The position numbers and the translations under genes were made by a program. Source: a virus (taxonomy: Duplodnaviria > Heunggongvirae > Uroviricota > Caudoviricetes). Taken from it: a stretch of 13,542 nucleotides of DNA. This document shows, one piece after another, positions 2,165 through 11,813 of this stretch; the first letter of the stretch is position 1; every line of letters begins with the position of its first letter. The notes below the pieces were generated by a model. The model was not told the origin of the DNA, searched no databases, and saw only the letters and a list, made by a program, of their open reading frames with translations. The stretch lies in the IMG/VR virus record IMGVR_UViG_2690315994_000027, positions 1 to 13,542 of that record; one strand, given 5' to 3'.

Positions 2165-2353
2165 TCACGAGGACAGAAGTTTCTCGCAATTAAAATTTAT
2201 CAGCTTTACTTTCTGCTCTCTGGACACGCCTGCTTCTTTTTTCCCTGAGAGCATTTTTTCGCATTCTGATTTCGTTAATTTAGATTTTGAATATCTTGTC
2301 CAGTTAGTAGGAGTGCCACCTTCTTTTTCAATAGTGGCAGTAATTTTATACAT
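2165..2353 (-). CDS. Small basic hypothetical protein (62 aa), translationally coupled to lar (position of Rac ydaC)
   Basis: ATG at 2351-2353 lies inside the lar 3' end (ATGTATAA overlap) with GGAGG 5 nt upstream; the track's longer 86-aa version starts inside lar in another frame. Confidence 0.5.
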   Translation of the reverse strand: MYKITATIEKEGGTPTNWTRYSKSKLTKSECEKMLSGKKEAGVSREQKVKLINFNCEKLLSS

Positions 2354-2595: not shown

Positions 2596-3405
2596 TTATT
2601 CTTCTGAATTATCGATTACACTGTATTCCCCGGTTAATACAGAGGAGTCTGCCGGATCGATTGTCAGTGGTTCCTTTTCATCCATTGATACTGCACGCTG
2701 GATTTCAATTGAGACAGGCAGGTATTTAAACAGGCGACGAATAGCCGTTTTTTTTGCCATTTCTTCCCAGTGAGTTACCCACGGCCCGTTATTACCAGCC
2801 TTACTCTGGCTGCGCACCAGTTCAATCTGTTTGCGCGTCATAACTTCAAACTGAGTCCCTCCGTCTTTCAGTCTTGCGACAGCATAGACGTGGGTCACTG
2901 GTGCATCTTCGTTTTCTCCCGGGCGGTGTATTAACTTTTCATCAAGGCCAAATTCAAAACTAAACTCGTCACCTTCACGGACAACACGGGCTGACAGGCT
3001 GGCGATTTGACCAGAACGGCGAGCCAGATCAATCATGCCGCGATAACCAATGATTAGCTGAACGTTCTTTTTACCGCTCTTTTCGTTTTTATTACCAAAA
3101 GGCAGTAAATATGCGTGGCCGAGGGCGCTACCTGGCTCAAGGCCGAGCTGTGAACACTGAACGATCGCACTGACAAAACTCATGGTGTCACAGTTTCCTA
3201 GCGCCGGAACCTTACGAATTTCTGTGGTGGCGATACGTATCATTCGTTCAGCCGTCATATGGCGTGGGAGAGCTGCTGCCAGTTGCTCTTTCATTGATGG
3301 CTGATTAATAAAGCTGATCACGTCGTTATTTTTTACTGCTGCTGGTGCACGGTTTCCCTGGGTTTTTTGCAGATCGGCTTTTGCGATAGGTGGTTGCTTA
3401 GTCAT
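2596..3405 (-). CDS. recT: RecT single-strand annealing recombinase
   Basis: 269 aa from [24 protein letters not shown]...; recognised as E. coli RecT; AAGGAG 7 nt upstream of the ATG at 3405; start overlaps the recE stop (3398-3400). Confidence 0.95.
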
Positions 3406-6076
3406 TTGCATACTCCTTAGCCCAGCGGGGCAGTGATAACGTTTTAATAGCTGGCCATTCATCGGTATTCAGGCAGTCAGCCAGGGTCCTCAGATTGCGG
3501 TGATATTCCTGCTGGCCTGCCAGTTTTGCTTCTTCGCCCATCATGAAAATCTCAACCGGGTAACGTCCGCATTCAACAGTTGTGCTGGCAACCAGAAAAA
3601 CGAAAGTTGGCAGCACACCAAACTGTGCTTCATAACCGTCACTGTAGAATGCATCCTGAACGTGATAGCGGTAGTCGTAATAAGCCGTTTTGAATCGTTG
3701 AATATCCGCTGTGGTTTTCACGTCCATGATCCAGTGAAATTCAGGGATAATTTTGTCCGGACGGCACCGACACAAAATTCCTGTTTCAGGATCTTCCCAG
3801 TAAATTGATGATTCAGCGTGTCCGGCGCTTTCAACAAGCCATTGACCCAGCGGCAAAGCCATAACGCTCTGATACATGAGTTCAATTTTCCGGCCTTCTT
3901 CGGCAGTGATAACCGTTTTTCCTGTGCTTGCGCATTCCATCAGAAACGCTTTCTCCTCTTCTTTTCCGGCGGTTGTACGGCGGTTAAATTCAGGTGCCAC
4001 GATAAAGCGGTTACTGAATTCTTCCGGTTCAAGTACACGGCAGTGGAAAGCGGTTCCTAAATCGAGCGTTTTTGTCTTTGTGGTGTCCACTGGGGCATTT
4101 TTACGCCACAAATACAGAGCCGGAGTATCAGCAATGTCGTCGAGCTGAGACTTACTGACACCGGGACCCGCGTGGTAATTCTCATTCGAAATTCCGTAAT
4201 AAATACCAGGCTCTATGTCTCCTGCGATTACGGGATCTGCGACTTCGCCAGTTTCATCACTGCAATCGCGATGCGGATCGCTGCCAGCATTCTCCTTGTG
4301 TGGATGTTCAGCGCCTTCCATTTTCTCCGGCTCATTTTCCCGAACTTCAACCTGATTCTCGTCATCGAATGTTTCCTGATATGTTGCGTCGCCCATCACC
4401 GCACCACAGTCAGGGCAGTTATCCCCGCCAGACTGACCGCAGGCGGTGCAAACTTTCTCCGTTTCCTGTTGTTGCACTACTGGCTCAGGCTGTTTCGTTT
4501 CTGGCTCGTTTTGTTGCGTATTTGGGTCGTTCTGTTCCGCTTTCTGGTCGTTCTGTTCCGTTTCTGGCTGATTCTGGTATATAGAGTCGCGGGTCTGGAT
4601 CCCCTTAACCCATTTCGGGTCATTCGGGTCGCTAATCCCTTCAACAAATTCTCCGCGAGAGGCAGCCAGTAATTTGTCTGCATCGACAGGATTTTTTGGC
4701 GGAATGTTTTTCCGGGCTTCATGGAGTTCTGCCCGCAGTTCCAGATATTTCGCATCAACAGAATTTACCTGTGACTGAGCATCCAGCGGCTGCGTGTCCT
4801 GATGATGTTCAGTTGCATCCGGTTCCACTGTTTCAGCCGTTGCCTGTTCATCTGCCATTGCGCCAGATGGTTGCGGTTTTTCTTCGTCATCCTGTTTTTC
4901 TTCTTCTGTTACACGCTGCGGCATCGGGGCAGAGGAGCGACCACAGGCAATATCCACGATTTCTGGATCAGGGTTGGCATGATCGGTTTCAATAAGTACC
5001 TTGTTCAGATATTCAGTGACATGCGCAGTGATGACCTCGATACCAATTGGTGCTTCTTTCACGGCCGCAACCACGATGGCACGGGAATAATCCAGCCCAC
5101 CAGGCATGGCGATGAATTTGTCGCGGAAAACAGAAAAGGGCGGTTTATTTTCAGCGATAATTTCCTCGACACGTTTAGCGTGTGCCGGATGAAGGTTATA
5201 AATGTCCACGTCCATTGAACGAGCCAGTACGCCAGTGGCTACGTCGCGCGCCAGTGACGTCAGATCGTGAACGAAACCTTCGCCGCGATCGGTGAGGTTC
5301 CCGCCGCCAGCATTAGCGCCGGAAGCCGTGCGCGTGATGCGTGAAACACGATTTCCTTTCATCCACTCTTTTGTCAGCAGACCGCGATCGGTGTAGTCTG
5401 CGTCCAGGTATGCTTCGAAAAAAGCAGTCATCAGCCCCAGACTTGAATTGCCAGGATTAGGGAAAACTTTGTCAGTATCACGAACCAGTCTGTGAAGATC
5501 GCGAATCTCCAGCGGGTCGAGCAGGCTGGTTTTGTGGGAAACAGCCAGGGCAGTAACAGCTGGTAGTTCTTCAGCCCGTGCAATATGTAATACCTGGAGT
5601 TCGTCACGTGAAACGTGCGTTACCGGTTTTTCGCTGCCGTGTTGAGCAAGCCAGCGAATGGACAGCTCTTGGCCAGAAATCGGGAGTGGCATATTCTCCT
5701 CAATCTCAGTCATGTCTTCGCCATTAACATTGGTATTGTCAGTGCTGGCTGTTTTGTCCTGCGCAGAGGATGAGGGCGCGATAAATACCATTGTGATGCC
5801 ATCTTCCCCGCCTTTTTCGTAACGGTTGCAGAATTCCGTATCAAATACGCCTTCTGGTGGGAGGTCATCAACAACGGGCAAATTGACGCGAACAGGTTTT
5901 TTGAAGTCATCTTCATCGTATCCAGCATCGTCAATCGCAACAGCACCACGGGAGATGGCAATGGATAATTTTTTCGCTTCAGCCCAGTAGAAACCGCCTT
6001 TAATACCGAGACGTTTTCTTACTTTGTCATTTTTTGCTTCGTAATACAGTGGGTAAACTTGTTTATCGGTGCTCAT
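3398..6076 (-). CDS. recE: RecE exonuclease VIII (5'-3' dsDNA exonuclease)
   Basis: 892 aa; long central and C-terminal stretches ([42 protein letters not shown] ... [10 protein letters not shown]) match my recollection of RecE; the N-terminal about 100 aa and a linker repeat appear to differ from the K-12 protein as I remember it. Confidence 0.95.
4484..4567 (-). repeat. Four in-frame 21-bp tandem repeats inside recE (heptad peptide repeats [28 protein letters not shown])
   Basis: Direct repetition visible in the DNA (GGTCGTTCTGTTCCGCTTTCT / GGTCGTTCTGTTCCGTTTCTG / related flanking units); frame preserved. Confidence 0.7.
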
Positions 6077-6146
6077 TGTTTTTTAACCTCAACTCAGATT
6101 AAAATTAATGCGAGTGATGAATAAATGTCCCAGGTTCTTCACTCAG

Positions 6147-6175
6147 GCCTGCACAGTGTGCAGGCTTTCTTTTTT
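6147..6175 (+). terminator. Plus-strand intrinsic terminator between recE and racC (no upstream plus-strand gene)
   Basis: Perfect 8-bp GC-rich stem GCCTGCAC 6147-6154 / GTGCAGGC 6158-6165, 3-nt loop, then TTTCTTTTTT 6166-6175. On the minus strand the hairpin is followed by TGAGTGAAG, so it is orientation-specific for the plus strand. Confidence 0.6.
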
Positions 6176-6450
6176 CAGATTTCACCTTTTAATTTCATTG
6201 CAATCAGAGTTGCCAGAAATTCGGCTTTTTTTTCTGCGGGCAGATTCTTTCCTATGTGCACCAGACACATTTTTTTAACACCATCGTTAAGTGTTTTAAC
6301 GTTGCCTGATGGACCGTCGATATCAACCACAGTGAATGGGGTTTCTTTATTTTCTGTCTTAATCACGTAGCCAATACGCTTTCCTTCCAGGGTAACTTCG
6401 TGAACAATGTCATCAGTAGTAACAACAGTGGCTTCATAACTGGTAATCAT
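6175..6450 (-). CDS. racC: RacC-like protein (91 aa)
   Basis: MITSYEATVVTTDDIVHEV... from the ATG at 6450 with AAGGAG 6 nt upstream; length and sequence match my recollection of Rac RacC; the track's longer ORF adds 16 N-terminal residues without an RBS. Confidence 0.75.
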   Translation of the reverse strand: MITSYEATVVTTDDIVHEVTLEGKRIGYVIKTENKETPFTVVDIDGPSGNVKTLNDGVKKMCLVHIGKNLPAEKKAEFLATLIAMKLKGEI

Positions 6451-6695: not shown

Positions 6696-6916
6696 TACCA
6701 TGACTCCGCCTTTACAGGTAAACCATCACGACCGAGGAAGACTCTAATCATGCAGTCAGAAATGCATGTTTTTGTAGTCAGGCTACGAATATAAAGTTTT
6801 CGCTTTTTAATATTGTTTGCCGAGGCGATATATGTCCGACCTTCATGAAGAACATAATCGCCAGGGGTCACACACTGACGTGGTATTTCATCAGTTCCGA
6901 AGTGATGAGCAATCAT
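6695..6916 (-). CDS. kilR: KilR (Rac killing protein, cell division inhibitor)
   Basis: 73 aa from [46 protein letters not shown]...; matches my recollection of KilR; GGAGAT 6 nt upstream of the ATG at 6916. Confidence 0.8.
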
Positions 6917-7081
6917 AATTATCTCCATTTTTACAAATGAATTTTGTCGATGCGGTGCCTGGTGCCTCCAGGTGACGTTAACCAGTTAACAATTAACGCC
7001 GGATAATCCACCCATAACACTGATGCTTTTAACTGTGCTGCGTGCGCTTAGCCGCATTCACCGCATCACAAAATTCACTTT

Positions 7082-7125
7082 AAAAAGGGGCGGCAGGGCA
7101 GCCACGGAGTAGAACTGATGCCGCC
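7082..7125 (-). terminator. Possible weak terminator for leftward transcription (tL-like)
   Basis: On the minus strand: GGCGGCA ... 23-nt loop ... TGCCGCC then CC and T5 (plus A5 at 7082-7086). Long loop and CC spacer make it weak. Confidence 0.25.
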
Positions 7126-7250
7126 AAAGACTACACATAGCAATTGTCGTTATTTACAACCGGAGGCGCACTCCCACCATTTAAATTTAACAGACAAGAC
7201 CGACTCTTTATGAATACCGGAAATGCGCCTTCGTGTTGTGCGCCTGTCTT

Positions 7251-7936: not shown

Positions 7937-7960
7937 AAAAAAGCCCGCTGATAGCGGGCT
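7937..7960 (-). terminator. Intrinsic terminator of the repressor gene
   Basis: Stem GCCCGCT 7943-7949 / AGCGGGC 7953-7959 with 3-nt loop; on the minus strand followed by T6 (plus A6 at 7937-7942); 32 nt downstream of the repressor stop. Confidence 0.7.
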
Positions 7961-7990: not shown

Positions 7991-8410
7991 TTACTCCGGT
8001 GGGGGATTATCTTTAAGCCTGCCTCTCAAATATTTTTCTACATACTCATCGATTTCTTTTAGCCGGACTTCAAATAGCTCAATCATTCGTTGTTGTTCTG
8101 AGCCCGGTAGCTGGTTAAACAACTCAAGAAGTTTTCGTTGGGATTCATTTAACCACAATTCAGAAGATTCCTGTTCTCCAAAGAGGAGCTCAGGAGGAGA
8201 TATGCCAAGTGCCTTTCCCAATACGACAGCGTCATGCACTCCAACATTTCTGCTGCCCGCCTCATAGTTACCTATACGCGATTGCGTCCATCCGCAGATT
8301 TCAGCAAGTTTTCCTTGAGATAAACCAAGCTTCTGCCTGCGCTCTTTAAGACGCATTGCAATTTTGTCATTGAGCCTACTAGCGGCAATTTTTTCGTTTT
8401 CTTTTTCCAT
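7991..8410 (-). CDS. Phage repressor, XRE/Cro-C1-type HTH, no S24 peptidase domain
   Basis: 139 aa; HTH segment LKERRQKLGLSQGKLAEICGWTQSRIGNYEAG; divergent from the Cro-like gene; no Ala-Gly / Ser...Lys autocleavage module recognisable in the C-terminal half. Confidence 0.85.
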   Translation of the reverse strand: MEKENEKIAASRLNDKIAMRLKERRQKLGLSQGKLAEICGWTQSRIGNYEAGSRNVGVHDAVVLGKALGISPPELLFGEQESSELWLNESQRKLLELFNQLPGSEQQRMIELFEVRLKEIDEYVEKYLRGRLKDNPPPE

Positions 8411-8444: not shown

Positions 8445-8488
8445 AACACAAAACAGCTTGACCATATAACACAAGATGTGTTTAAAAT
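8445..8488 (+). promoter_or_regulatory. Predicted rightward early promoter (pR analogue) with two operator-like sites (OR analogue)
   Basis: -35 TTGACC 8458-8463, 17-bp spacer, AT-rich -10 region 8481-8488 (TTTAAAAT); near-perfect palindrome AACACAAGATGTGTT 8468-8482 in the spacer and a weaker copy AACACAAAACAGCTT 8445-8459, centres 23 bp apart. Confidence 0.5.
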
Positions 8489-11051: not shown

Positions 11052-11813
11052 ATGGAGACTGTTTTTGACGCACTGAAAGCAATGGGAAAAGCCACATCCA
11101 TAGAACTTGCTGCGCGACTTGATATCAGTCGGGAAGAAGTGCTGAACGAACTATGGGAACTGAAAAAGGCTGGTTTTGTTGATAAAAGCGCGTACACCTG
11201 GCGTGTGGCTGATAACAACGTTCAGCAGGAACAGCCAGCGCAGGCAGAACTGCCGGAAGAAACCACCACAGCAACAGTAGCGAAAATCTCAGAGTGCGAT
11301 TTAACCGCGACGATTGAACAACGCGGACCACAAACGGCTGATGAGCTGGCTACATTGTTTGGTACCACATCACGCAAAGTGGCTTCAACGCTGGCAATGG
11401 CAATCAGCAAAGGTCGTCTGATTCGCGTAAATCAGGGCGGTAAATTTCGTTACTGCATACCGGGCGATAATTTACCAGCAGAGCCGAAAGCGGCATCGGT
11501 AGCGGAAACTGATGGTAAAGCCTTTCCTCAGCCTGCATGTGTTGCGTTACCAGTACAGGAAGCTGCAACACAGGAAGATATTAAAACAGAAACTGTGGCG
11601 GACATTGTGCAGTCGCTGCCATCGTTCACCGAAACGCGATCGGATGACCTGATTTTACCATCGCTGCATATGGCAAACCGCGAACTGCGTCGGGCGAAAA
11701 GTCATGTCCAGAAGTGGGAGCGAGTCTGCGCCGCGCTGCGGGAGCTGAACAAGTACCGGGATATTGTCCGACAGATTGTAGATTCCTCCAGTCGTATTGT
11801 GTCGGAAAAGTGA
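11052..11813 (+). CDS. Hypothetical protein with two winged-helix-like segments (YdaW-like position)
   Basis: ATG at 11052 with GGGAG upstream (the track start at 11001 overlaps the DnaC-like gene); segments ...[29 protein letters not shown]... and ...[30 protein letters not shown]... look like wHTH recognition helices. Confidence 0.65.

Follow-up and report, generated by a model that had tools for sequence, protein, structure and literature searches.

The OOP RNA of phage lambda, a constitutive antisense RNA of 77 nt, has its own promoter and intrinsic terminator, and the duplex that it forms is cleaved by RNase III. The Sar RNA of the P22 immI region is reportedly a phage antisense RNA of about 70 nt, and is said to have been described by Wu, Liao, McClure and Susskind in 1987. 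RalA, the antitoxin of RalR, is a small RNA of 179 nt that belongs to an Rfam family, pairs with the toxin mRNA, and is made from a repressed prophage (PMC4041452).

Here we examine the spacer between the racC and recE genes of a Rac-like prophage, on the plus strand of which, opposite to the leftward genes, an intrinsic terminator would end a small RNA (below, the spacer RNA). The element is best read as an unannotated representative of the cis-encoded antisense RNAs of temperate phages. Like OOP, the predicted spacer RNA is short and antisense to the adjoining spacer of a lambdoid early operon; OOP, however, belongs to the rightward operon and overlaps the end of the cII coding sequence, whereas the spacer RNA would lie wholly inside the leftward racC-recE spacer. 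Its predicted layout is that of P22 Sar: the promoter would lie close to where the downstream gene begins, the RNA would span the intercistronic spacer, and the intrinsic terminator stands close to where the upstream gene ends. Sar covers the ribosome-binding site of ant and blocks translation, whereas the spacer RNA would start ~20 nt short of the recE Shine-Dalgarno sequence (SD); the two RNAs have no sequence similarity, and the spacer RNA is predicted from its sequence and from a 3' end in E. coli K-12. RalA and the spacer RNA would both be plus-strand small RNAs in the leftward operon, made from a repressed prophage, and RalA is found in the DNA studied here as well (2169-2347, plus strand; Rfam RF02694, 221 bits); unlike RalA, the spacer RNA has no Rfam family and faces no toxin gene.

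Genomic setting of the spacer

The DNA that was analysed, called the window below, is a stretch of 13,542 nucleotides (13.5 kb) that represents a Rac-like lambdoid prophage distinct from K-12 Rac itself, and is 99.7% identical to a region of strain M19. Its leftward genes are int, xis, a DUF1187 gene, ralR, recT, recE, racC, ydaE and kil, beyond which lie the immunity region and then rightward genes of the ydaS/ydaT type. The genes that frame the spacer, and recT, are placed as follows:

2596-3462, leftward: recT
3398-6076, minus strand: recE (exonuclease VIII), downstream of the spacer in the leftward operon
6175-6450, minus strand: racC, upstream of the spacer in the leftward operon

The names racC and recE had been given from the sequence in the original prediction, and both are correct: the RacC product is a close match to that of K-12, from which it differs at 5 of 91 residues, and near-identical genomes have an annotated recE. 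On the plus strand the recE start reads CAT at 6074-6076 and the racC stop reads TCA at 6175-6177, which leaves a spacer of 98 bp (6077-6174).

The recE gene is a mosaic. Its first ~110 codons (5740-6073) are 30-60% identical to K-12 recE, a second divergent patch at 4400-4700 is ~66% identical, and the remaining part is 92-98% identical. At the left edge of the window, just outside the integrase gene, the small RNA pair SraC/RyeA and SdsR/RyeB was found at 463-607, with yebY adjacent. Because this pair adjoins the integrase gene, the prophage of the window is inserted at the yebY-ryeA/B locus, unlike K-12 Rac and the O55:H7 CB9615 prophage, the insertion site of which is ttcA.

Upstream of kil, within 6909-7139 (minus strand), the window holds a DicF match (7088-7139, 60.9 bits, above the Rfam threshold) and a sub-threshold STnc100-like match. 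In the K-12 locus L002 (9223-9503, minus strand), the annotated small RNA KilS, located in the 5' UTR of kilR, overlaps a sub-threshold DicF match of 39 bits; judged by these matches, KilS looks like a diverged relative of DicF, of which the window prophage would have the better-conserved form.

A plus-strand intrinsic terminator between racC and recE

A strong plus-strand terminator had been predicted in the 98-bp gap between racC and recE, and it is present there as a G+C-rich stem-loop followed by a U tract:

6145-6167, plus strand: terminator hairpin, AGGCCUGCAC-AGU-GUGCAGGCUU as RNA, supported by a consensus scan, the fold and covariation
6166-6175, plus strand: T tract TTTCTTTTTT, the last T of which coincides with the first base of the racC stop codon as read from the other strand

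In its DNA form (AGGCCTGCAC-AGT-GTGCAGGCTT, then TCTTTTTTCA / TCTTTTTT) the hairpin has 10 pairs, 6 of them G-C, and a loop of 3, and it ranked first among the terminator-like sites of the window in the consensus scan. Terminator-like sites overall were not enriched (16 found in the window and 14.2 expected), which is what a chance hairpin next to a T run, having no function, would lead one to expect. Strong sites, for which we required 8 or more pairs, 6 or more of them G-C, and 6 or more T in 8, nevertheless numbered 2 in the window, compared with a mean of 0.015 in 200 first-order Markov sequences, only 3 of which had any site as strong. Since the stem also covaries and the terminator is used in vivo in K-12, as described below, a chance origin is effectively refuted. 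The spacer terminator is confirmed as real and functional, its use in vivo having been seen for the K-12 allele.

The second strong terminator of the window lies at 7942-7960 on the minus strand (8 pairs, 6 of them G-C, then TTTTT), just downstream of a repressor-like open reading frame (ORF) at 7991-8410 on the same strand. A weak Rfam match (E = 0.044) of the Trp-leader type overlaps it and probably reflects the terminator shape alone.

On the plus strand, the 100-nt spacer region folds with -27.4 kcal/mol (z = -3.45), and the fold of the minus strand is equally good (z = -3.69). The minus strand, however, has no U tract, its hairpin being followed by UGAGUGAAGAACC instead, and consequently the terminator is unidirectional. 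The bidirectional terminators reported between convergent genes by Ju et al. 2019, as cited in PMC7815308, likewise have a hairpin shared by both strands; unlike in those, racC and recE are co-directional and the T tract is on the plus side only, so that a U tract on both strands, the mark of a bidirectional terminator, was not found. As had been claimed, no plus-strand gene precedes the terminator: there is no conserved plus-strand ORF upstream of it. A small protein was considered and rejected: two plus-strand ORFs (6108-6278 and 6125-6370) read through the terminator, and the K-12 allele has neither of them.

Use of the terminator in E. coli K-12

The spacer of K-12 Rac can be aligned to that of the window and has a hairpin of its own, AGCCTGCG-CCATA-CGCAGGCT, at 1417460-1417480 of NC_000913.3. 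In the Term-seq data of Adams et al. 2021 (eLife, PMC7815308, supplementary file 1), a plus-strand 3' end is listed at 1417486, which is position 8487 of the K-12 locus L002 and the sixth base past the hairpin, inside ATTTCTTT, as intrinsic termination predicts. A plus-strand Term-seq 3' end at the terminator had been set beforehand as the test of the original prediction, and 1417486(+) is such an end in the K-12 homologue. Mean read counts of 185,664 (LB, OD 0.4) and, on a later sheet, 146,140 are given for this end. The file devotes one sheet to each growth condition and lists the coordinate three times, with no label other than 'antisense' to racC (PMC7815308). Of the ~50 entries for the plus strand with which the table opens, a single one, a tRNA, has more reads. 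The main text of the same paper does not mention the site (PMC7815308). A later reanalysis reported strand-specific inconsistencies among E. coli 3'-end data sets.

In cells with Rac repressed, an abundant RNA ends at the K-12 terminator. This end within the U tract, found in vivo for the K-12 allele, completes the likeness to canonical intrinsic terminators, which have the same G+C-rich stem, short loop and U tract, with the 3' end 6 nt into the tract; compared with them, the only peculiarity of the spacer terminator is the lack of an annotated gene that it would serve. Most likely, the K-12 terminator marks the end of an abundant unannotated small RNA, most plausibly an antisense RNA of ~63 bases.

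The RNA is absent from the K-12 RefSeq record, which does have ralA and the recently named kilS, as well as from the small-RNA sequencing supplements of Shinhara 2011, and a full-text literature search returned no description of an RNA from the racC-recE spacer. As far as we have searched, its 3' end was already in a published table, yet the RNA was neither named nor discussed. The curated K-12 Term-seq 3'-end tables contain neither ralA nor ralR.

Two alleles of the spacer and covariation of the stem

We collected 217 loci from genomes and viral contigs. The spacers of ~215 of them, 28 distinct variants between the conserved anchors, all fall into two alleles: type A, that of the window, occurs in 268 of the 5426 complete E. 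coli genomes, and type B, that of K-12, in 1594 of the same 5426. The two are ~45% identical over 6108-6160, compared with 85-98% in the adjoining racC, and the divergent block extends into the first ~110 recE codons, broken by a conserved island (6066-6107) in which the alleles share 90% identity. The diversity (pi, 92 haplotypes) was 0.001-0.011 in the island, 0.036-0.043 in the RNA body and 0.048-0.079 in racC. A natural recombinant (L216) combines a K-12-type recE N-terminus with a type A spacer, which indicates that the island also serves as a recombination joint. When both alleles were compared with all loci by BLAST, one site per locus was found and no paralogous copies.

Both alleles fold alike, into a 33-nt 5' hairpin, the terminator hairpin directly after it, and the T tract. 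In the window, the predicted RNA and its first hairpin are:

6112-6173, plus strand: predicted small antisense RNA of ~62-64 nt, the 5' end placed from the candidate -10 element and the 3' end from the K-12 Term-seq end
6112-6144, plus strand: predicted 5' hairpin, GAGUGA.UGAA ... UUC.UCACUC, with an 11-nt loop, from the fold

The stems of the 5' hairpin are almost invariant within an allele; a C-to-U variant present in 7 loci forms G.U on the plus-strand RNA only, and in one variant (L215) a single pair is broken. In the between-allele alignment the arms of this hairpin are out of register. In the terminator helix, 96.5% of the cells were paired over 20 distinct variants, and 4 pairs had changed on both sides (A-U to U-A in one example, A-U to G-C in another); the observed value was reached by 0 of 500 shuffles, and the slid controls were 19-41% paired. 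The stem has been kept by compensatory change, as in an intrinsic terminator, and the loop varies freely, even being inverted (AGT/ACT, CCATA/TATGG); such drift of the loop with the stem kept is the expectation when only the stem matters. The covariation evidence is limited by the number of alleles, since no third one was found among the relatives of RacC: these are at least 54% identical to it, none was found outside Escherichia and Shigella, and their spacers either belong to type A or type B or are decayed copies.

The loop forms that are reverse complements of each other among the loci (6155-6157 in the window, 8469-8473 in L002) have the signature of template switching within the hairpin.

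The same variants bear on the strand to which the structure belongs. On the minus strand it could be an element of the racC-recE mRNA, namely a 3' protective stem-loop, a processing site or a partial decoupler, in which case the plus-strand T tract would be incidental. This proposal agrees with the equally good fold of the minus strand, and, according to Dar and Sorek (2018), stem-loops with no U tract are reported to protect the 3' ends of Rho-terminated mRNAs. Three internal-stem polymorphisms (TCACTC to TCATTC, GCCTGCG to GCCTGTG and GCAC to GCGC), however, pair as G.U on the plus-strand RNA only and would be A.C mismatches on the minus strand, although this strand assignment is weak, because the loop-closing pair of type B (48-52), a U.G that would lengthen the K-12 stem on the minus strand only, points the other way. 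Against a minus-strand element there are also the 3' end observed in vivo, which is on the plus strand, the T tract, which was kept on the plus side in 28 of the 28 spacer variants with nothing U-rich after the minus-side hairpin, and the derepression of recE together with racC. We therefore hold a minus-strand element to be highly unlikely as the explanation of the locus; it is compatible with the antisense RNA that we favour and not exclusive of it.

In a short metagenomic contig (L213, 2260-2400), a decayed K-12-type spacer stands beside a truncated recE, parts of the 5' hairpin and of the terminator's 3' arm having been deleted; as this contig illustrates, the element is lost as the prophage decays.

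Within racC, codon positions 1 and 2 are as variable as position 3 among ~90 haplotypes, the phase being unchecked against alignment gaps. Such a pattern would fit diversifying selection on RacC as the reported blocker of a retron toxin.

Candidate promoter and 5' end

Upstream of the terminator, the following elements may matter for the start of the RNA:

6076-6081, plus strand: candidate -35 element TTGTTT, the first T of which is the T of the recE start codon on the other strand
6100-6105, plus strand: candidate -10 element TAAAAT, 18 bp past the -35 element
6081-6104, minus strand: possible weak hairpin of the recE mRNA leader (UUUUAAUCU / AGGUUAAAA), suggested by the minus-strand fold

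The promoter of the original prediction stood as to the existence of both hexamers and the place of the -10 element, and had to be corrected as to the -35 element, which had been put at 6077-6082, and the distance between the two, given there as 17 bp. With 8 of 12 consensus matches, the candidate is of a grade that occurs ~1.1 times per kb per strand in the window, so that on sequence alone it is not above chance. It is the only promoter-like site at the same threshold within 500 bp upstream of the window terminator, and the only candidate common to both alleles within ~400 bp upstream. It also lies inside the conserved island, in the 33 bp that vary least in the region, the divergence of the alleles beginning right after the -10 element; the recE SD, the start codon and the possible leader hairpin, which takes in part of the SD (GAGG), could alone explain the conservation of the island without a promoter. 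We regard the candidate as plausibly the own promoter of the spacer RNA.

Judged from the position of the -10 element, the 5' end would be near G6112 (~1417423 in K-12), and the 5' hairpin would begin at the first base of the predicted RNA. No plus-strand 5' end that matches the spacer RNA was found in the Cappable-seq and SMRT-Cappable-seq supplements.

The start of the RNA is the point on which a purely insulating role of the terminator depends. It might do nothing but stop spurious or read-through plus-strand transcription arising from the AT-rich antisense strand of recE and recT, thereby protecting racC, kil and the immunity region, and the Term-seq end would then be that of a stable tail with no function of its own. 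Term-seq reports 3' ends only, the proposed promoter is weak by consensus, and further weak promoter-like sites lie 180-250 bp upstream in K-12, all of which would suit an insulator. Those upstream sites, however, are not shared with the window allele; neither other plus-strand 3' ends nor Rho-termination regions antisense to recE or recT were found in the Term-seq and Rho tables, and the SMRT-Cappable-seq supplement lists no long capped transcript antisense to recE. Because of the lack of such transcripts in these data, a nearby promoter is favoured. In addition, so high a read count speaks for an RNA that is short and stable, and in both alleles a conserved structured 5' hairpin abuts the terminator. 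We consider it unlikely that the terminator is an insulator only.

Predicted form and class of the spacer RNA

These observations point to a discrete species of ~63 nt with a promoter of its own. The predicted RNA would begin ~20 nt upstream, in the sense of the mRNA, of the recE SD and end 2 nt before the racC stop, so that it would overlap neither coding sequence nor the recE ribosome-binding site. The original proposal of a small antisense RNA or a convergent-transcription stop is partly supported: it has held as regards a working terminator and the K-12 3' end, and is conjectural as regards the 5' end and the effect on recE.

By its geometry, the RNA has what is expected of a cis-antisense RNA, i.e. 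complementarity to a transcript of the opposite strand, that of the racC-recE spacer, which a single transcript presumably crosses. It does not resemble the RNA of a type I toxin-antitoxin system: no small toxin ORF was found opposite to it, where only the end of racC, the spacer and the recE leader lie, and RacC is reported to block a retron toxin rather than to be a toxin.

A further possibility is a trans-acting small RNA, dependent on Hfq or ProQ and directed at mRNAs of the host or of other phages, for which the position between racC and recE would be incidental. Abundance and apparently constitutive production, as the three listings in the three-sheet file imply, would agree with it, and so would the typical layout of a terminal hairpin with a U tail. 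The weak Rfam matches, too, are all on the plus strand and to families of small RNAs that bear a terminator. With Rfam 15, searched over the whole window and locally at a permissive setting, no family reached the gathering threshold for the spacer RNA (the best match, OmrA-B, had 21 bits and a threshold of 40), and the K-12 spacer had no match. In the Hfq RIL-seq supplementary tables of Bar et al. 2021, the study that named KilS, there is no racC or recE entry, which is an absence from a list and not a test of binding. No conserved single-stranded seed of the kind expected of an Hfq-dependent RNA was evident in the two alleles, which share short motifs only and differ in the register of their hairpin arms. 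When the prophage was scanned for duplexes with the RNA, no site stood out clearly from the shuffled controls, the best value being -50.1 kcal/mol, at a GC-rich stretch (11711-11770), compared with -46.7 kcal/mol for shuffled RNAs. Taken together, these results make a trans-acting RNA quite improbable.

Proposed role and implications

Our best explanation as a whole, which we consider probable, though by a small measure, is an independently transcribed cis-antisense RNA of ~62-64 nt that may act as a brake on recET. A weak sigma-70-type promoter (TTGTTT-18-TAAAAT), overlapping the recE start codon and leader and directed away from recE, would give rise to a transcript with its end in the T tract that immediately precedes the racC stop codon. 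Such an RNA would be produced even under prophage repression, and would be the perfect complement of the spacer that separates racC from recE in the leftward racC-recE-recT transcript. Its complementarity to the spacer and a promoter that overlaps the recE start suggest action in cis. The genes racC, recE and recT are derepressed together on silencing of racR, hence a sense transcript exists for pairing.

Such an RNA would most likely restrain the leftward transcript in cis, acting as an antisense brake on its distal portion, recET, the expression of which it may regulate. By one route, a duplex of ~60 bp would be cleaved in the manner of RNase III, so that recET would be separated from racC and destabilised, in the way that OOP affects cII. 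By another, occupancy of the promoter and collision of polymerases (convergent promoter interference) would reduce transcription of recET. A simple masking of the ribosome-binding site as by Sar would be unavailable, because the RNA starts ~20 nt short of the recE SD.

Bobonis et al. describe racC and recE as a linked pair for a retron toxin-antitoxin system, in which RecE, by degrading msDNA, is the trigger and RacC acts as the blocker of the toxin (bioRxiv 10.1101/2020.06.22.160242). In the most far-reaching interpretation, which we find doubtful and advance only tentatively, the spacer RNA would be a dedicated cis-antisense regulator at this junction of RacC blocker and RecE trigger, with the two alleles as specificity variants. 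If this were true, cutting or dampening of the transcript after racC would supply the blocker ahead of, or in excess over, the trigger, leaky expression of recET would be kept off in the lysogen, and the two diverged alleles could prevent cross-talk between co-resident Rac-like prophages. That the antisense RNA sets the RacC:RecE ratio is speculative.

The recE and recT genes are the RecET genes of recombineering, and their silence in Rac is an old question, known from the sbcA mutants. In a gene table, sbcA is a synonym of both racC and recE. According to papers of the Clark laboratory from 1989-1990, sbcA lesions are reportedly promoter or operator changes, or deletions further upstream, that place recE under an active promoter; the link between sbcA and the spacer drawn in the original prediction is a lead rather than a finding. 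For the species, the element would mean one more unannotated small RNA in K-12 and in about one-third of complete E. coli genomes, and an abundant, seemingly constitutive antisense RNA placed between racC and recE would give both the silencing of RecET and retron defence a new point of control.
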